Of a stretch of 36,796 bases of DNA, positions 1,068 through 34,203 are shown piece after piece. Position 1 is the stretch's first letter; each line of letters opens with the position of its first letter. The notes beneath the pieces were generated by a model. The model saw only the letters and a program-made list of their open reading frames with translations. It was not told the DNA's origin and ran no database searches. The position numbers and the translations under genes were made by a program. Origin of the DNA: a virus (Duplodnaviria > Heunggongvirae > Uroviricota > Caudoviricetes); IMG/VR virus record IMGVR_UViG_2537562172_000001, positions 1 to 36,796 of that record. One strand, 5' to 3'.

Positions 1068-2177
1068 TCACTCTGTTTCCGCTATCCATTCCGGGATTTT
1101 TGCCTCAAGCTCAAGCTGCGTGGTAAAGCCGCTGTTATCAATGGTGTGCTCGGCTTTTGCAATAATCCAGTCCTGATTATCAATCTCGCTTTTAAATCCT
1201 GTTACCGTGCCATGCATTTCGGGGTAGAGTTCTGCGCGTCCACGTGCCAGCGTGATGGAAAATGATGCGGCTCCGCGTTGTAGCTGCTGCCACTTTGCCG
1301 CCGCTGCGCGTCTTGCTGCCTGCTCGTTCTGATAAGTTTTGCGTAACACAAATACGTTGCCTTCCGCACCTTCCATATAGTCACCTTCGCGGCTGCTGCT
1401 TTTCTCCTTTTTGGGTTTTGGCGGTTTGCGGCGTTTCACGCTGACTTTTTTCTTTTTCCCGTAATTAAGATCAAGCCAGTAGGCGCGTACACCCGTATAC
1501 GCCTCGCGGTCAGCAATGCGGAACTGATGGCGATCTCCGCTGCTGCGTGTGATGGCAAACGATGGCAACGGCTGGCCCTGCGCGTTCACGCCACCGCCGG
1601 GCATGATGAATAACAGATTACCGCTTTTTACCGTGGTGATTGCGCCCAGCATTTCCGCCATGCGCGTAAGGAAGGACATATCACTTTCTTCGGTCTGGTC
1701 GGCGTGGTCGATTTCAATATCCATCAGCATTTCGCTGATTTGCGGTTTCAGGCCGTATCGGTGAGCAATTGCAGACACCACGCGTTCAACGGTCACATCA
1801 TGCCAGGATACTTCGCGCTTGACGTTAAATTCATCCCGAAAATCTGCGCTTCTGGCTGAAATGGTCAGTCTGTCGGGCGGTCCTTCATGAGCAATTTCAT
1901 CAACAATGTAAGTGCCTTTTTCTGTCAGCGGTTCGCCTTTCCAGCCAATGAGAACCGTCAGGCGCGCGCCCCGTGGCGGTAGCTGCAACTGACCATCCGC
2001 ATCATCCAGCGTGATGGTGAGCTGGTCTGCCTCAAATCCCCGGTTGTCGGTCAGTGACAGGCTCATCAGGCGCTCTGCCACGCCTGACAGCGTTTTACCC
2101 TCCGCGAGAATATCAAAATCCGGCATTTTCACGGGGTCTGTGCCCTGACTGAGCAATTGCATGGTGGTATCGGTCAT
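1068..2177 (-). CDS. D: Tail protein D (late control D family)
   Basis: Long ORF 1068..2309. Likely start is the ATG at 2177..2175 (MTDTTMQLL...), preceded by AGGGAGGG at SD spacing. Size and position (next to ogr) fit P2 gpD. Confidence 0.85.
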   Translation of the reverse strand: MTDTTMQLLSQGTDPVKMPDFDILAEGKTLSGVAERLMSLSLTDNRGFEADQLTITLDDADGQLQLPPRGARLTVLIGWKGEPLTEKGTYIVDEIAHEGPPDRLTISARSADFRDEFNVKREVSWHDVTVERVVSAIAHRYGLKPQISEMLMDIEIDHADQTEESDMSFLTRMAEMLGAITTVKSGNLLFIMPGGGVNAQGQPLPSFAITRSSGDRHQFRIADREAYTGVRAYWLDLNYGKKKKVSVKRRKPPKPKKEKSSSREGDYMEGAEGNVFVLRKTYQNEQAARRAAAAKWQQLQRGAASFSITLARGRAELYPEMHGTVTGFKSEIDNQDWIIAKAEHTIDNSGFTTQLELEAKIPEWIAETE

Positions 2178-2334
2178 CTGTTCCCTCCCTGTGCGGCATG
2201 GTCGCATGTGCGTGCGGAAGGGGTTACTGCTTTTTGTTGTCGCCGGGTCGGGAGAACGGCGCAGGGGTGAGATTACGCGCGTGGTGGGTGATGATTGTTG
2301 CCGAATCATTTAACGGATACAAGGGGCTGAAGCT

Positions 2335-3519
2335 ATGAGTGAAACTCGTTTTCATGGTGCCCGTGTTACGGAAAATACCGACCTGGTAACAGCGATTAAC
2401 GATGTTGATTCCAGTGTTATCGGTATCGTGGCAACGGCGGATGATGCGGACGCGGAGCTGTTCCCGCTGAACAAGCCCACACTGCTGACCCGCGTCAATG
2501 ACGTGCTGGGAAAATGCGGAACAACGGGGACGCTTTATCGTGCGCTTAAGGCCATCGCAGACCAGGTGAGCACAAAGGTGATCGTCGTTCGCGTGGCTGA
2601 ACACAAAGAAGAAGACGGAAAAACGCAGGATCAACTGGTTATCGGTGGTTCTGAATCTGACGGCAGCTATACGGGGATGTATGCGCTGCTTGTTGCAGAG
2701 CAGGATGAAAGCATCGGATACCGTCCGCGTATTCTGGCCGCGCCGGAGCTGGACACGGAGGCGGTAACAAAATCCCTGTGCGTGATTGCGGGTAAACTGC
2801 GCGCGTTTGTGTATGCCTCATGTCACGGCTGTAACACGATGGCTGAGGCGATTACCTACCGCCAGAAATTCAACGAACGTGAGGTGATGCTCTTATGGCC
2901 GGACTTCATCGCCTACAACCCGAAAAGTGGCAAAAACGAAACGTTCCCCGCGCCTGCTTATGCGTGCGGCCTTCGTGCGTACATTGACCATGAGCAGGGC
3001 TGGCACAAATCGCTGTCCAACGTTCCGGTTAAAAATGTGCTGGGAATGTCCAGGCATGTGTTCTGGTCGTTGCAGGCCGAAGACAGCGATGCCAACAGCC
3101 TCAATAACAAAGAAATCACGACCATTATTCGTCGCAACGGGTTCCGCTTCTGGGGCAACCGCACACCGGAAACGAACGCCTACATCTTTGAGGTGTATAC
3201 CCGAACCGCACAGGTGCTGGCTGATTCAATTGCGGAAGCGCAGTTTGAAACCATCGACAGTCCACTGACGCCTGCGAACGTGAAGGATGTTATCAGTGCC
3301 ATCAGGGCAAAACTGGATTCGCTGGTTACTGCCGGGAAACTGATTGGTGCGGAGTGCTGGTATGACGTGGTGGATAACGGCACCACGAATTTACGTCAGG
3401 GACGTGTGCGTATTCGCTACAAATATACGCCCGTTCCGCCACTGGAAGACATGGAGCTTTACCAGACGTTTACTGATGAATTCTTTGGTCCCGCATTTGC
3501 GGTGCTGGGAGGTGCCTGA
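2335..3519 (+). CDS. FI: Contractile tail sheath protein
   Basis: 394 aa. Motifs LIRRNGFRFWGNRT and YKYTPVPPLE resemble P2 FI (LIRRDGFRFWGNRT, YDYTPVPPLE). Followed immediately by the tube gene. Confidence 0.9.
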   Translation: MSETRFHGARVTENTDLVTAINDVDSSVIGIVATADDADAELFPLNKPTLLTRVNDVLGKCGTTGTLYRALKAIADQVSTKVIVVRVAEHKEEDGKTQDQLVIGGSESDGSYTGMYALLVAEQDESIGYRPRILAAPELDTEAVTKSLCVIAGKLRAFVYASCHGCNTMAEAITYRQKFNEREVMLLWPDFIAYNPKSGKNETFPAPAYACGLRAYIDHEQGWHKSLSNVPVKNVLGMSRHVFWSLQAEDSDANSLNNKEITTIIRRNGFRFWGNRTPETNAYIFEVYTRTAQVLADSIAEAQFETIDSPLTPANVKDVISAIRAKLDSLVTAGKLIGAECWYDVVDNGTTNLRQGRVRIRYKYTPVPPLEDMELYQTFTDEFFGPAFAVLGGA

Positions 3520-4031
3520 TGGCTGTACCAAAACATCTTCGCTTTTTTACGTTGTTTGTGGATGGTGAAAACGAAGTGGGTAAAGTGACATCCGTCACGC
3601 CGCCCAAACTGACGCGCAAAACCGACAGCTATCGTGGTGGTGGCATGATGGGGGCGGTAAGTATTGATCTCGGTCTGGACGACTCCGCGCTTGATGCGAG
3701 TTTTGTTATGGGGGGAGCTGTTCGTGCGCTGTTCCTTAAATATGGCGGCACGATTGACGGCACGCTGCTGCGTTTTGCGGGTGAATACTACACCGATGCA
3801 GAAAGCGATCTGTATGAAATCGAGATGCGCGGGCGTGTGACGGAAATTGATATGGGGGAAGCCAAACAGGGCGAAGCCACATCACACACTTACGCTGTCA
3901 AAAACACCTACTACAAGCTGAGCGTTAACGATCGCCCGCTGTGGGAAATCGACCTGTTGAACCACATCTACCGGAAGGACGGCAAGGACATTGTTCCTGA
4001 CCGTATCCGTTCCGCGCTTGGGCTTGGCTGA
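3519..4031 (+). CDS. FII: Tail tube protein
   Basis: 170 aa, directly after the sheath gene with overlapping stop/start (TGATG). Size and position match P2 FII. Confidence 0.88.
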   Translation: MAVPKHLRFFTLFVDGENEVGKVTSVTPPKLTRKTDSYRGGGMMGAVSIDLGLDDSALDASFVMGGAVRALFLKYGGTIDGTLLRFAGEYYTDAESDLYEIEMRGRVTEIDMGEAKQGEATSHTYAVKNTYYKLSVNDRPLWEIDLLNHIYRKDGKDIVPDRIRSALGLG

Positions 4032-4086
4032 TAAGTAATATGCAGGCGGCGCAGTGCGTCGCCTCTGACTGAAAAGGAGAAAACTG

Positions 4087-4461
4087 ATGAAAGACATCGA
4101 TACTGAAACCCGGAATAACACCGTGGTGGATGATGTGACGGCAGGTGAGGATATGGCTGTCGAACGTGGCGTAAAACTGACCCGACCAATTGAGCGTGGT
4201 GGCGAAAAAATCACGTATGTGGAGATCACCGGGGCTATTGAACAGGCTGGATCCCTGCGTGGTCTGTCGCTGTCTGATGTGCTGAATCTGAAAGCGGATA
4301 CCATGTTCACGCTGTTGCCTCGCGTGACCTCGCCACGACTGGATGAAGTGATGATTAAAAAAATGTCGTCACGCGATTTTATTCAGTTGTGCGCTGTGGC
4401 TGTAAATTTTATGAGCGAGCCAGACTCTGGCGCGAAGAGCGTGCAGGAGACGGCAGCGTAA
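4087..4461 (+). CDS. E: Tail assembly chaperone E
   Basis: 124-aa acidic ORF between the tube and tape-measure genes, overlapped at its 3' end by a -1 frame ORF, which is the E/E' arrangement. Confidence 0.75.
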   Translation: MKDIDTETRNNTVVDDVTAGEDMAVERGVKLTRPIERGGEKITYVEITGAIEQAGSLRGLSLSDVLNLKADTMFTLLPRVTSPRLDEVMIKKMSSRDFIQLCAVAVNFMSEPDSGAKSVQETAA

Positions 4462-26974: not shown

Positions 26975-27934
26975 TTACTCCTTGTCCATTGCGTACAGCC
27001 CATTAACCAGAGCAAACTGTGGCACCCCGTCCGCGATGAAAGTCGCATTAACTCCGCAGGCTTCGCGGATAGCGGGTGCCACAATCTCCGCCCCGCCACC
27101 GACAACCATCACCCGCCCGTAACCCGAAAAACCCGCCAGCGCGCGGATCACGCGTTGTTTCAGTGTTTCTTCCTTTTCACGAATAACCGCCATCAGGCTG
27201 GCGTAATGCGCGTCATTGTGGATGTGCTGGCGCAGCCAGGCTTCATCATGGCGATGTTCGATAATGGTATTGGCGATGTGGTGACTGGTGCGCATACCGT
27301 TAGTGGCCATCACCGACAGTACGGCATCGGCCATCAGAGAAACGCCTACGTGTGGATCGCAAAACACCTGGCTGATACCTGCCAGTTGTCCCTGAACCTT
27401 TGCCACATCCAGCGTGGTTCCGCCTAAATCCACAATCAGCAGGGATTCAAACGGACTCATGTCAGCCAGTGCTTTAAAGCCAGCCGGAATGGATTCAGGC
27501 ATAACCCGTACGTTACGGATAGTGAATGCTTCGCCGTTCTGGTACTCCACCGGGCGCATGACGTTCGCTTTTTTGCGGTTGATGTTGGCCATGTCCGGCT
27601 GTGCGTTTGTGTCGAAATACTCGCTCAGTGGCAGGGTGACAACCACATCCACTTCCTGTGGTGTGATGCCTGATTTGACCAGCGCGTGATGAATGGCGAT
27701 TACATTCACATCGCTGTACTGGTATTGCGTGTCAGTCGTCTGGACAAAGCGATCGCTGACCGGATCAAAGCCATAGCGCACGCCATCAAGCATGTAGTTC
27801 GCGGGATGCGTGCCACCGAACGGCGCAGACCATTCCGACTTGAAGCTGTTCGGGCTGATGGCGTTGCGGCGTTCGCCGTTCTCAGTCCATGCCAGCTTGA
27901 TGTTGGTGGAGCCGTCGTCGATACAAATTTTCAT
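26975..27934 (-). CDS. parM: ParM/StbA-like actin-fold ATPase (type II plasmid partition NTPase)
   Basis: 319 aa. MKICIDDGSTNIKLAW (phosphate-1 motif), SPNSFK, YQYSDVNV..HHAL, TLPLSEY, RKKANV, VMPESIPAG and LIVDLGGTTLDV (phosphate-2 motif) align along the whole length with R1 ParM as recalled. Confidence 0.85.
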   Translation of the reverse strand: MKICIDDGSTNIKLAWTENGERRNAISPNSFKSEWSAPFGGTHPANYMLDGVRYGFDPVSDRFVQTTDTQYQYSDVNVIAIHHALVKSGITPQEVDVVVTLPLSEYFDTNAQPDMANINRKKANVMRPVEYQNGEAFTIRNVRVMPESIPAGFKALADMSPFESLLIVDLGGTTLDVAKVQGQLAGISQVFCDPHVGVSLMADAVLSVMATNGMRTSHHIANTIIEHRHDEAWLRQHIHNDAHYASLMAVIREKEETLKQRVIRALAGFSGYGRVMVVGGGAEIVAPAIREACGVNATFIADGVPQFALVNGLYAMDKE

Positions 27935-30839: not shown

Positions 30840-31205
30840 TTACTCCGCTTTGCCGCTCAGTGCGGCGTGGCAGACGGCAGCCAGCCGCTGAATTTCCAGC
30901 ACGGTGTCTTCTGTGTCGGCATGGCGATGTGTGATGCGGATGCTGTCGGCAATCACATCGACGATTGCAGAAGATGGGCGCTGGTAAATGCCAATAACGG
31001 ACGGGGTGCCACCTTCAATGCGGTAAAGCCTGTAATTTCCCTCGTGGCTGTCAATCATGTAGCGGCCATCAATAACAATCTTTCCGTCAGCGAGCTGCGG
31101 TACAGGCAGGGATTTCAGGTACATGTCATAACGATCACGCACGCGAGCGGCAAGATCACGCTCTGTGTTGAGCAGGTATTCAAGAAAGTCGTTGGCGAGA
31201 ATCAT
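30840..31205 (-). CDS. Hypothetical early-operon protein (121 aa) upstream of A
   Basis: Compact ORF ending 6 nt before the A start, in the position of P2 orf82/orf83. Confidence 0.55.
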   Translation of the reverse strand: MILANDFLEYLLNTERDLAARVRDRYDMYLKSLPVPQLADGKIVIDGRYMIDSHEGNYRLYRIEGGTPSVIGIYQRPSSAIVDVIADSIRITHRHADTEDTVLEIQRLAAVCHAALSGKAE

Positions 31206-31277
31206 TGCGGCAATCCTCTTGTTACAGATGTGCGAAGGCCTCCCGCCGCAAGGTGCAGGAAAGGCCCGGAACAGGAA

Positions 31278-31505
31278 TTAATGGAGTTTGTTTTGCTGCT
31301 GGATGAGATCCTGAAGAGACAGGAGGTCTTCCGCCAGATAGCTGAATACAGCGGCGCAGTAGTCGGCTGAAATAGTGCTGTTGAGTCTGTGCAATGTGTT
31401 GGATTGCATGATAAAGGCGATGTGTGCAGCGCGGGTGAGTCTGCGATCGATTTCAGTCTGGATGTGACGACGTGCAGCGTATGCGCGCTGTTTGCGGTTT
31501 GCCAT
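31278..31505 (-). CDS. Hypothetical early-operon protein (75 aa)
   Basis: ORF MANRKQRAYAARRHIQTEIDRRL... in the early-operon orientation. No family recognised. Confidence 0.5.
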   Translation of the reverse strand: MANRKQRAYAARRHIQTEIDRRLTRAAHIAFIMQSNTLHRLNSTISADYCAAVFSYLAEDLLSLQDLIQQQNKLH

Positions 31506-31684
31506 GGTGTGGCCTCTCTGTTAGTTAGTTTTGAAAACTCACCATCCAGAGGTTCCAAGCTCGGGGTGGTGAGACGTACAGGGTTGGAACTACCGGCTAA
31601 CAGAGGACCCGGCCCAGCTGATGCTGGCCCTGTACGCCCCACCATAATTCTGACGCGAAAAAGACGTGGCGATACGGTACGCAC

Positions 31685-31704
31685 AAAAAAACCGCTGGCG
31701 CGGT
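31685..31704 (-). terminator. Intrinsic terminator (minus strand) downstream of the SPFH module, inside the early operon
   Basis: On the minus strand: AACCGC-gcca-GCGGTT followed by a run of about 6-8 T. Confidence 0.5.
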
Positions 31705-31872
31705 TGTGCGCTCTGTTAGTCTGCGGGGTTCCAATCCCGGCACCCGTTTTATGAGGTGCAGCGGGAATGTAACCTGACTGATTGCGGCATGGCAAGCGGT
31801 TTTTTTGTGAGAACGGCATACTAAAAAATCCTGATACTGCTCCGGCCAGCGGTTTTCACTGGCCGGATTTAA

Positions 31873-32703
31873 TTACTTCACGGGAACGAACGGAACAGCG
31901 GTGTTACTGGTCATGTATTGCGGCAGCGTGCCGTTCCATTTGTTGATCGCTTCCAGCTCCATAACGCCGGGATTCTGGCGCAGAGCTTCACCGCGTAAAC
32001 GAATGGCGTCGGCTTCAGCCTGGGCTTTTGTGCGAATGGCATCAGCCTGTCCGGCAGCTTCTGCGCGCAACATGTTGGCTTCTGCTTCGCGTTGCTTGAC
32101 TTCCTGTTCGCGTTGCAGGGTTTTCTGGTTTGCCGTGACTTTGGCGTTAATGCTGTCGATAACGGTTGGCGGATATTCCGGTTTACCGACATAAGAGAGG
32201 CTCATGACCTGAATGCCGATGGGGGTCATCTCTTCCTGAATATCTTTAAGTGCTGAATCCAGCAGTTCAGACTTACCACCGTCGATAAACTTATCGGTGG
32301 TCATTTTGCTGGCCAGTCGGTTGAGTGCATCGGCAATCTTCTGGCGCAGGTCAGTGTCGGTAATGTCATCCACGCCTTTGCGGTAGGTCTGAAACACTGT
32401 GGTAACTTTGGATGGATCAACCTTGTAAGCCACGCCGATGTGATAGCCGATGGTTGTGCCGTCACTCATCTGAAAGCTGAACGGCTCATCGTAGGTCTTC
32501 ATTTGTTTGAAGGTCGGGAAGATGTAAACCTCGGTATTCCAGCCAGTCCAGTAGCGGCCAACGCCAACCACTTCGCCAACGCCTTTGTCGTCGCCCAGCT
32601 TGTTGACTTTGATGCCCACATTACCTGGCTCAACGCGATCGCAACCAACCAGCAGGATGGCGGCAAAAAGCGGGATAATCTGAAAGAGTCTGAATTTCTT
32701 CAT
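31873..32703 (-). CDS. SPFH/band-7 (stomatin/prohibitin/flotillin-like) domain lipoprotein
   Basis: 276 aa. N-terminus MKKFRLFQIIPLFAAILLVGC has a lipobox (LVGC). Followed by a band-7-like core and a C-terminal Ala/Glu/Arg/Gln-rich coiled-coil segment (REQEVKQREAEANMLRAEAAGQADAIRTKAQAEADAIRLRGEA). Confidence 0.8.
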   Translation of the reverse strand: MKKFRLFQIIPLFAAILLVGCDRVEPGNVGIKVNKLGDDKGVGEVVGVGRYWTGWNTEVYIFPTFKQMKTYDEPFSFQMSDGTTIGYHIGVAYKVDPSKVTTVFQTYRKGVDDITDTDLRQKIADALNRLASKMTTDKFIDGGKSELLDSALKDIQEEMTPIGIQVMSLSYVGKPEYPPTVIDSINAKVTANQKTLQREQEVKQREAEANMLRAEAAGQADAIRTKAQAEADAIRLRGEALRQNPGVMELEAINKWNGTLPQYMTSNTAVPFVPVK

Positions 32704-32903
32704 TGTTTGATTTCCTTGATGTACTTACTGAAAAGGCGAACAACGCCTGCCGGGTACAGCATGGCAATGAAAATGCCCAGCAATACCAGGAAGGAGCTGT
32801 CTGATGAAATCATTCGGGGGAGTAGTCCTGCATACAGAATGATAGAAATGAGGACGCATACCAGCGCCCACATGTATGCGCGAAACCAAGTCTTTTTGTT
32901 CAT
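32700..32903 (-). CDS. Small membrane protein with two predicted TM helices (67 aa), translationally coupled to the SPFH gene
   Basis: MNKKTWFRAYMWALVCVLISIILYAGLLP...FLVLLGIFIAMLYPAGVV; its stop overlaps the SPFH start (ATGA-type overlap). Confidence 0.6.
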   Translation of the reverse strand: MNKKTWFRAYMWALVCVLISIILYAGLLPRMISSDSSFLVLLGIFIAMLYPAGVVRLFSKYIKEIKQ

Positions 32904-33076
32904 GTTGATTGCTCTCTTTTGTTATTCAGGAAAAAGTCAAAAACGTTATCGATGCGCATCATGAGTTCGCGCTGCATCGCTTCGGGTGTTTCCGGTTCGC
33001 CAGGCGACCCCAGCGTTGCGCAGAAATCAGCGATCTCGTGTTGAATGAGTTCTTTCAGCGTCGGTAAGGAATTCAT
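32900..33076 (-). CDS. Hypothetical small acidic protein (about 58 aa)
   Basis: ORF 32900..33118; likely start is the internal Met (MNSLPTLKELIQHEIADF...). Confidence 0.45.
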   Translation of the reverse strand: MNSLPTLKELIQHEIADFCATLGSPGEPETPEAMQRELMMRIDNVFDFFLNNKREQST

Positions 33077-33114
33077 GTGTGTGCGGCGATGCCTGCGTGT
33101 GATTCGCCTTCTGC

Positions 33115-33318
33115 TCATTTACGCTGCTCCTGTACCTGTCGGATAAGATTTACTCGCGCCACGTTGGTGGCGCAGAAGTAAGTGCCGTCAGTGAGGTAGA
33201 TGTGGTGTGCATCCTTTTCCGAACGATGTTTGTCGATAGTGGTAATCAGGCGTTCGTCGACTTCGTATTCACGTCCTCTGGAGGTAAAGCGAACGACGGG
33301 AAAATGCTTAATTGCCAT
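33115..33318 (-). CDS. Hypothetical protein (67 aa)
   Basis: Compact ORF in early-operon orientation, overlapping its neighbours by a few nt. Confidence 0.5.
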   Translation of the reverse strand: MAIKHFPVVRFTSRGREYEVDERLITTIDKHRSEKDAHHIYLTDGTYFCATNVARVNLIRQVQEQRK

Positions 33319-33964: not shown

Positions 33965-34203
33965 GCGATATTCCCCAGCTTATACGGTTCAATATGTTCC
34001 CCGCATTCTGCGGCGCAGATAAGCTCAGAAAGTTCGTTAAGTGCATCCAGATCATCAGCGTAAAAAGCCACGTCATACAGACTCCGGATTGCCCTGGTCA
34101 ATGAGTCACGGGCTGCACGTTCAGCATGAGTGCCTGATGCGCTTAAGCGAAAATAAAAACGCTCAAGTGCTTTGTTAATGAGGGTTTTATATTCTTTGCC
34201 CAT
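33961..34203 (-). CDS. Hypothetical protein (80 aa)
   Basis: Compact helical-looking ORF in the early operon. Confidence 0.5.
   Translation of the reverse strand: MGKEYKTLINKALERFYFRLSASGTHAERAARDSLTRAIRSLYDVAFYADDLDALNELSELICAAECGEHIEPYKLGNIA

Follow-up and report, generated by a model that had tools for sequence, protein, structure and literature searches.

Proteins with an SPFH (Band 7) domain, such as HflK/C, prohibitin, stomatin, flotillin and erlin, have recently become structurally well understood as fences around patches of membrane, and to our knowledge every solved SPFH protein is a ring or dome. Prohibitin and erlin are also tied to membrane-protein quality control. In HflK/HflC (Protein Data Bank (PDB) entries 7vhp, 7vhq, 7wi3 and 9cz2), an SPFH domain on the periplasmic side is followed by a long coiled-coil helix, and according to PDB entry titles the HflK/C cage was solved enclosing FtsH. 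A second described arrangement is the SPFH-NfeD operon (E. coli QmcA-YbbJ, PDB 8z5g, and archaeal PH1511-PH1510), in which an SPFH gene (for PH1511, that of a stomatin) is co-transcribed with the gene for a small membrane partner. Here we analysed a viral DNA of 36,796 nt (IMG/VR record IMGVR_UViG_2537562172_000001, positions 1 to 36,796, the whole of which is referred to as the window), which is a P88-like prophage of the P2 family, genus Xuanwuvirus. Its leftward early operon, downstream of the C/Cox switch, contains the gene for a 276 amino acid (aa) SPFH lipoprotein directly behind the gene for a 67 aa membrane protein. This pair occupies a fixed cargo slot that is empty in close relatives, and we tentatively propose that the two proteins form a scaffold on the host inner membrane during the lytic phase. 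The pair comprises the following features:

32700..32903, minus strand: gene for the 67 aa two-helix membrane partner (open reading frame (ORF) list, phrog_1130 match, hydropathy and charge)
31873..32703, minus strand: gene for the 276 aa SPFH/Band-7 lipoprotein (Pfam Band_7, phrog_200, AlphaFold2 and Foldseek)
32641..32703, minus strand: signal peptide with lipobox LVGC (read from the sequence; Cys21 codon at 32643..32641, followed by Asp22)
31942..32169, minus strand: Ala/Glu/Arg/Gln-rich long helix (residues 179-243) and short helix (residues 245-254) (AlphaFold2, composition and HflK alignment)

The stop codon of the 67 aa gene and the start codon of the 276 aa gene share a 4 nt ATGA overlap that can be read directly from the sequence, and both the coordinates and the translational coupling given in an earlier annotation of the same DNA (the sequence-only reading) were exact. 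The pair is P88 gp11/gp12, with the region being 98% identical at the DNA level to that of phage P88 and 100% identical to that of E. coli ETEC4090. The 67 aa protein matched phrog_1130 ('membrane protein', E=1.8e-22) and the 276 aa protein matched phrog_200 ('lipoprotein', E=4.1e-112), on adjacent, co-oriented genes with a 4 nt overlap, and the same was found in phage N4. The N4 gp19 and gp20 proteins, P88 gp11 and gp12, and the PHROG 1130 and 200 families are true homologues of the same architecture, with essentially no difference: N4 gp20 is 61.5% identical to the SPFH protein of the window over its full length, and N4 gp19 is a 68 aa protein with two transmembrane (TM) helices and an LLPSMVS loop, the gene of which overlaps gp20.

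These genes are already present in GenBank as 'lipoprotein', 'membrane protein', 'SPFH domain protein' and, wrongly, 'serine protease', and the family members in model phages (N4, P1 variants, Stx phages) have been labelled 'lipoprotein' or 'serine protease' for about twenty years. Homologues also carry labels such as 'SPFH serine protease', 'putative transposase (fusion protein)', 'high frequency of lysogenization C protein' and 'HflK-like protein', and some are named 'prohibitin family protein' by NCBI. The annotations as 'serine protease' (phiP27, Stx phages, Pastis) and 'transposase' (Pseudomonas phages) were rejected as inherited misannotations, since Pfam gives only Band_7. Full-text literature searches on the function of the SPFH pair returned only passing mentions and one speculation, which proposed a role in adsorption or DNA entry (PMC13239085), and no functional study of N4 gp19/gp20 or P88 gp11/gp12 was found in literature searches. 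Nor did we find in the searched literature any description of the near-universal two-TM partner with its loop motif, the natural fusions of both proteins, the lipid-anchored split architecture, or the fixed P88-type cargo slot.

Residues 23-209 of the 276 aa protein matched the Pfam Band_7/SPFH profile (PF01145, E=5.7e-31) over positions 2-176 of 176, and with 108.4 bits against a gathering cut-off of 23.6 this profile search upheld the band-7-like core suggested by the sequence-only reading. The N-terminus, MKKFRLFQIIPLFAAILLVG-C-D, consists of a charged (basic) n-region, a hydrophobic core and the lipobox L-V-G-C with Asp at position +2, and the sequence MKKFR-LFQIIPLFAAILLVG-C fits the lipobox pattern [LVI][ASTVI][GAS]C; the lipobox LVGC given in the sequence-only reading is present. 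The lipobox Cys was detected in 103 of 120 close and 112 of 117 distant homologues, and among the 103 close enterobacterial homologues with a detected lipobox the +2 residue was Asp in 98 and Glu in 5. In E. coli and other Enterobacteriaceae, lipoproteins with Asp at +2 avoid the Lol system and are retained in the inner membrane. On the basis of the Asp at +2 and this sorting rule, the mature SPFH protein is predicted to stay anchored in the inner membrane and to face the periplasm.

The AlphaFold2 monomer model (predicted local distance difference test score, pLDDT, of 79) contains strands in residues 21-95, helices in residues 97-159 and a single long helix of 65 residues (179-243), and together with Foldseek it gave an SPFH alpha/beta core followed by a long coiled-coil helix. 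The composition of this helix (22% Ala, and 11% each of Glu, Arg and Gln) agrees with the long Ala/Glu/Arg-rich helix described earlier from the sequence, and the region aligns with the coiled coil of HflK. As modelled, residues 179-254 correspond to the part that forms the coiled-coil wall in SPFH cages. Between unrelated enterobacterial phage families the mature SPFH protein shares at least 75% identity, and because of this high conservation it does not look like an arms-race protein. Judged by sequence comparison, the mature SPFH part is common to these families, with the signal peptide and the two-TM partner exchanged as one block. DNA identity of the window to lambdoid Stx2/phiP27 phages (91-92%) begins at the lipobox Cys codon (32643), and this stretch (31906-32643) stops 10 codons short of the end of the SPFH gene.

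Among solved structures HflK was the best sequence match (E=1e-4), and a Foldseek search against the PDB gave 65 matches at E<=0.001, with the best 50 of the 65 all being SPFH proteins or the SPFH-like shoulder of vault. The top matches were HflC/HflK (7vhq, E=5e-14), prohibitin (8rrh, 9o9z) and erlin, with stomatin, flotillin and QmcA ranked below them, and these top structural matches are domes which face away from the cytoplasm (exoplasm). The window protein resembles HflK/HflC in its predicted periplasmic-side SPFH domain and the long helix behind it. In contrast to HflK/C, with its two paralogous SPFH subunits that each have an N-terminal TM helix, the phage system has one SPFH gene, with a lipid anchor and a separate two-TM protein replacing the N-terminal helix. 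Orthology to HflK or HflC was rejected, as the hflC (TIGR01932) and hflK (TIGR01933) models scored 25.7 and 23.5 bits, respectively, against NCBIfam equivalog cut-offs of 134.4 and 159.4 bits. Prohibitin and erlin (PDB 8rrh, 9o9z, 9vvj) had Foldseek scores comparable to HflK/C, but differ in being eukaryotic organellar hetero-oligomers (14-18% identity) with N-terminal helices, without a lipobox and without a two-TM partner. The SPFH-NfeD operons share the combination of an SPFH gene with a small membrane partner gene, whereas the phage partner has neither an NfeD OB-fold domain nor a protease domain. The possibility of an NfeD-like partner raised by the sequence-only reading was accordingly rejected, since the Pfam search found no NfeD domain (PF01957) at E<=0.1 and the protein, 67 aa in total, consists almost entirely of two hydrophobic helices. 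QmcA was also a weaker structural match (Foldseek rank 34). As QmcA faces the cytoplasm, it differs in orientation from the SPFH protein of the window, which is predicted to face the periplasm.

Hydropathy analysis of the 67 aa partner showed two hydrophobic peaks at approximately residues 9-27 and 36-54, in line with the two hydrophobic helices proposed from the sequence alone. The termini both carry a positive charge and the loop between the helices is neutral; by the positive-inside rule, an N-in/C-in topology is predicted. The short loop, predicted to be periplasmic, carries the family motif LLP-R-M-I-S-S-D-S, and its LLPRMISS sequence fits the pattern P-x-[LMF]-[IVL]-S between two TM helices. 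Partners with a P-x-[LM]-[IV]-S loop were found in phiP27, Fraca, Cyrano, Pastis, N4 (gp19), PVP-SE1 (gp116) and a Cohaesibacter prophage; the small partners are just 23-32% identical to each other, and have the two helices and the loop motif in common. Weak matches of the partner to Pfam PigN and RseC_MucC (E=0.01-0.06) were dismissed as noise from TM composition.

A small ORF with this motif abuts or overlaps the SPFH start codon in 87 of 89 viral or annotated loci, with the two exceptions being one fusion and one contig end. The partner was present in approximately 28 of 31 clusters of diverse phages and, using a crude detector, at 59 of 80 loci of species-representative genomes. Strict gene overlap is common, not universal: in some virulent phages one or two small ORFs without any relation to the pair lie between the motif-bearing two-TM gene and the SPFH gene, namely gp117 at the PVP-SE1 locus (2133-3367) and ORF15-16 at the locus of Pseudomonas phage Ab22 (1783-3274). 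Many SPFH homologues of 330-390 aa are natural fusions, in the order TM1, P..S loop, TM2, basic linker, a third helix ending in the lipobox Cys, and the SPFH domain. The Pro, Ser and Cys residues were invariant in the fusions (two alignments of 12 sequences, with three sequences in both), and the AlphaFold2 model of one fusion has three helices (2-27, 32-55 and 57-73) before the SPFH core, a model that gives no contacts and says nothing on partner docking. These fusions are strong evidence that the two proteins act together, probably in a ratio of about 1:1. The exchange of signal peptide and partner as one block, combined with the contiguity of the three helices in the fusions, further suggests that the signal helix may co-evolve with the partner. 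With the constant partner, the fusions and the optional slot in a common E. coli prophage, a vague annotation becomes a defined two-component system.

At least 385 of 50,697 phage records contained the SPFH gene, as did at least 486 IMG/VR contigs and 625 plasmids; 601 of these plasmids are non-mobilizable and match P1-like or SSU5/pMT1-like phage-plasmids in size. An exhaustive HMMER search for SPFH homologues returned 2,907 cluster representatives, with 222 at E<=1e-30. Among the carriers are the lambdoid phages phiP27 and Stx2, the Hendrixvirinae, N4 together with N4-like Schitoviridae, a P1 variant, SSU5-like phages, the rV5-like phage PVP-SE1, LUZ24-like Pseudomonas phages, Burkholderia phage phiE125, phiCbK, a crAss-like phage and the Lak megaphages; N4, PVP-SE1 and the LUZ24-like, phiCbK, crAss-like and Lak phages are virulent. 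In lambdoid phages the pair is located in the leftward early (int-xis side) gene cluster, and in many temperate and virulent phages it is surrounded by genes for replication, recombination and nucleotide metabolism. A conserved third gene or an association with the lysis cassette was rejected, since the 164 neighbour proteins at 31 diverse phage loci included no recurrent third gene and no lysis or structural neighbours. No PADLOC-DB 2.0 model matched the SPFH protein and the partner gave only a 21-residue match at chance level (E=0.008), and a known defence system was thereby rejected.

In cellular genomes relatives were rare, being found in only 107 of 185,579 species-representative genomes. 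In approximately 22 Dyella/Rhodanobacteraceae genomes and five Leptospira genomes, the pair is chromosomal with conserved synteny. The Dyella pair is located between divergent genes for a BlaR1-type M56 peptidase/sensor and BlaI repressor on one side and hemerythrin-domain and ribonucleotide reductase genes on the other, a gene order which hints at a possible connection with envelope-stress regulation, and the Leptospira pair adjoins succinate dehydrogenase genes. This conserved chromosomal synteny argues for a module with an intrinsic function in cell physiology, which phages may have borrowed.

We consider it possible, as a tentative reading, that the pair is a host-directed, lytic-phase SPFH scaffold on the host inner membrane, because of the virulent carriers, the replication-type neighbours, the chromosomal orthologues, the conserved mature SPFH protein and the lack of a PADLOC match. 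The two genes would then encode one membrane machine, a split phage version of the periplasm-facing cage of HflK/C-prohibitin type. The lipidated SPFH protein would sit on the periplasmic face of the inner membrane and may oligomerise into a dome, as is proposed here because all solved SPFH proteins form rings or domes, and the hairpins of the partner, at about 1:1, would provide the transmembrane fence for which HflK/C and prohibitin use their own N-terminal helices. The complex would be made when the early operon fires upon infection or induction, and not in the repressed lysogen, and the dome would enclose a patch of host inner membrane. The FtsH protease is the leading candidate for an enclosed client, a guess that is more doubtful than the scaffold itself, and its capture would change how fast membrane and regulatory proteins of the phage or the host are degraded. 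FtsH was chosen because HflK/C was solved with FtsH inside, and by analogy with two further cases: prohibitin acts together with the m-AAA protease, a relative of FtsH, and CIII is the means by which phage lambda interferes with FtsH. Within the scaffold model, the pair might instead stabilise the inner membrane in a general way while the phage develops, an alternative that we also regard as rather unlikely.

Several points weigh against such a scaffold. Its oligomerisation, localisation, expression timing and client are all things that we infer, and the link to FtsH is drawn solely from the analogy with HflK/C and prohibitin, with model scores far under the equivalog cut-offs. Full-text literature searches found no report of a phenotype for the pair. 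Early expression would be equally needed for exclusion in the lytic cycle (compare T4 imm and sp), and the failure to predict a sigma-70 promoter says little against expression in the lysogen. The N4 pair adjoins gp18, a Pfam GP17 'superinfection exclusion' protein, and the Vi01-like phage PhiSH19 likewise has an annotated exclusion gene beside a more distant SPFH gene; both neighbours hint at exclusion.

Superinfection exclusion in the lytic cycle is the first alternative to be weighed, and we consider it less likely than the scaffold but still a serious contender. The dome and its two-TM partner would block the entry of a second phage genome at the inner membrane, for instance by masking or sequestering an inner-membrane channel or the periplasmic ejection apparatus, in a role like that of T4 Imm/Sp, P22 SieA or TP-J34 Ltp, without homology. 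The predicted placement on the periplasmic face of the inner membrane together with a small two-TM protein fits such a role, as does the expected early or middle expression of the pair in both virulent and temperate phages. At the N4 locus (2913-4337), gp19/gp20 directly follow gp18 (GP17 'superinfection exclusion gene product 17'), and the N4 exclusion system is still unidentified according to a 2025 preprint (PMC12642591). The exchange of signal peptide and partner between phage families, with the mature SPFH protein kept, could also reflect changes in specificity. However, a GP17 neighbour was found at only 1 of the 31 diverse loci, the mature protein varies far less from one phage family to another than is typical of exclusion proteins, and the genus-wide chromosomal orthologues beside housekeeping genes in Dyella and Leptospira are hard to explain by exclusion. 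T4 Imm/Sp, P22 SieA, TP-J34 Ltp and T5 Llp, known exclusion proteins that are small envelope-acting phage membrane proteins and lipoproteins, offer a possible functional analogy only, as they differ in lacking any sequence, profile or domain similarity to the window protein, in which only Band_7 was found, and the lack of a PADLOC model match also speaks against exclusion.

The insertion and transcription of the pair involve the following features:

31810..32924, minus strand: inserted cassette of 1,115 bp (blastn versus relatives, junction sequences)
32900..33118, minus strand: upstream ead/Ea22-like early gene (ORF list, phrog_4144, junction comparison)
31841..31867, minus strand: 11 bp G+C-rich hairpin directly after the SPFH stop codon (RNA fold; inside the insert)
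31766..31795, minus strand: promoter-like site of the downstream isrK-like/C4 RNA unit (scan, TTGCCA-18-TACATT; Rfam isrK and C4)

In blastn comparisons of the window with phages 705R2, P88_4B11 and Shae_phiSM, homology ends at 31809 and restarts at 32925. The cassette contains a new 3' end of the upstream gene, the two-TM gene, the SPFH gene and the hairpin, and its position is taken by 25 bp in the empty-site phages 705R2 and P88_4B11. The Xuanwuvirus relatives 705R2, P88_4B11 and 520873 lack the pair at exactly the same position, and Citrobacter phage Shae_phiSM has a different gene there, encoding a 183 aa DNA-binding protein. The slot between the ead/Ea22-like gene and the isrK promoter therefore has at least three states (25 bp empty, two-TM plus SPFH, and the Shae_phiSM gene). 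The insert rewrites the end of the ead/Ea22-like gene from ...FFLNQ* in empty-site phages to ...FFLNNKREQST* in the window, and it ends just ahead of the conserved sequence CACAAAAAAACCGCTTGCCATGCC, which is common to filled, empty and alternatively filled sites and is the promoter-like site (31795..31766) marking the distal edge of the slot. Among 5,426 complete E. coli genomes, 929 contained the empty junction and 145 the full cassette. The pair is thus a mobile cassette that P88-type prophages may or may not carry at one set position of their early operon, and since the slot is empty in close relatives and in 929 genomes it is not a core early gene; the comparison with P2-like relatives supports the inserted module that the sequence-only reading had recognised.

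The stop codon of the ead/Ea22-like gene overlaps the start codon of the 67 aa gene (ATGA), and four minus-strand genes (33318..33115, 33118..32900, 32903..32700 and 32703..31873) are chained by 4 nt overlaps. A promoter scan of minus-strand positions 34150 to 31795 detected nothing resembling a sigma-70 site, and with no promoter ahead and the ATGA chain from the upstream early genes, the pair is integrated into early transcription and is no independent unit. The hairpin after the SPFH gene has a folding energy of -22 to -23 kcal/mol (z=-3.2), and a U6 run (31828..31823) starts 12 nt past its stem. A scan for strict consensus terminators on the minus strand did not call it; with its U-run displaced by 12 nt, the hairpin is terminator-like and not a canonical intrinsic terminator. 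Of the self-contained module with its own terminator that had been proposed earlier, the strong hairpin following the pair remains; the displaced U-run and the negative scan make the terminator doubtful, and the lack of an own promoter does not fit.

The sequence-only reading had suggested effectors of superinfection exclusion or abortive infection. In a defence of this kind the cassette would be a lysogenic-conversion 'moron', expressed from the resident prophage, and would protect the lysogen either by excluding other phages or by a membrane-damaging abortive infection, an explanation that we regard as improbable. The presence/absence polymorphism among collinear relatives at a fixed slot is typical of cargo genes and is that of a 'moron', the pair is followed by a hairpin, the PHROGs category of the partner is 'moron, auxiliary metabolic gene and host takeover', and membrane proteins are commonly defence effectors. 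The own promoter of a 'moron' was lacking: no promoter-like site precedes the pair, and ATGA overlaps tie it to the preceding early genes behind the Cox/C switch, in an operon that is expected to be repressed in lysogens. The location of the lambdoid pair in a leftward early cluster, the presence of the same pair in obligately lytic phages (N4, PVP-SE1, crAss-like) and the orthologous pairs at conserved chromosomal loci in Dyella and Leptospira are further arguments against it. The pair is also absent from what we take to be the locations of the P2/P4 defence hotspots. There was no PADLOC match, and papers on the P2/P4 defence hotspots did not mention SPFH, Band 7, lipoprotein or P88. Overall, the evidence leans away from a defence expressed in the lysogen.

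Control of lysis timing, in which the cage would restrain a holin or pinholin or keep the membrane energised to give delayed lysis and a larger burst, appears about as improbable, for although SPFH cages enclose membrane proteins elsewhere (PDB titles) and N4 shows strong lysis inhibition with inhibitory factors not yet identified (PMC12642591), the pair was never beside holin, endolysin or spanin genes at the 31 diverse loci, no class of spontaneous N4 rapid-lysis mutants mapped to gp19/gp20 (Table 1 of PMC12642591), and the P2-like and lambdoid carriers are not known for lysis inhibition.

A bolder and rather unlikely extension of the scaffold model is that the pair is a pan-phage early device that builds closed periplasmic domes on the inner membrane. 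N4-like phages, and many others, would have in it their missing inner-membrane system for exclusion or for sensing infection or, more generally, a phage-made compartment capturing a host machine such as FtsH. In that case, the split, lipid-anchored architecture with a dedicated two-TM fence would represent a new structural class of SPFH assembly. Should the pair control FtsH, membrane integrity or phage DNA entry, it would bear on lysis-lysogeny decisions and phage-phage competition, as well as on N4 exclusion and lysis-inhibition factors; if dispensable, it would be an ordinary accessory gene.

Downstream of the promoter-like site at the edge of the slot, the minus strand encodes an isrK-like RNA (31759..31685, 72 bits), which overlaps a weak match to the c4-a1b1 target family and has a stem (31705..31690) with a trailing U-run at its end, and a C4 antisense RNA (31649..31562, 78.5 bits). 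The C4 RNA is followed by a 75 aa ORF of the 'Derepression' family (31505..31278), a 121 aa ORF and the 940 aa replication gene A. The unit at 31278-31795 looks like an RNA-controlled antirepressor unit of the P1/P7 immI type or the Gifsy IsrK type in a P2-like early operon, and the downstream isrK/C4 unit was found in at least 871 complete E. coli genomes. A 205 aa ORF (31202-31819, minus strand), which lies over the isrK and C4 RNAs and is annotated as 'hypothetical protein' or 'transcriptional regulator' in relatives such as 705R2 and P88_4B11, is probably a spurious call across two structured RNAs. Finally, just downstream of gene A, a 319 aa ORF (26975-27934, minus strand) corresponds to P88 gp17 in position and length, a match which was made on these two properties and not by alignment. 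P88 gp17 is annotated as 'plasmid segregation protein ParM' and the P88 gene after it as 'partition protein', and an actin-like segregation module is unusual for an integrating P2-like prophage.

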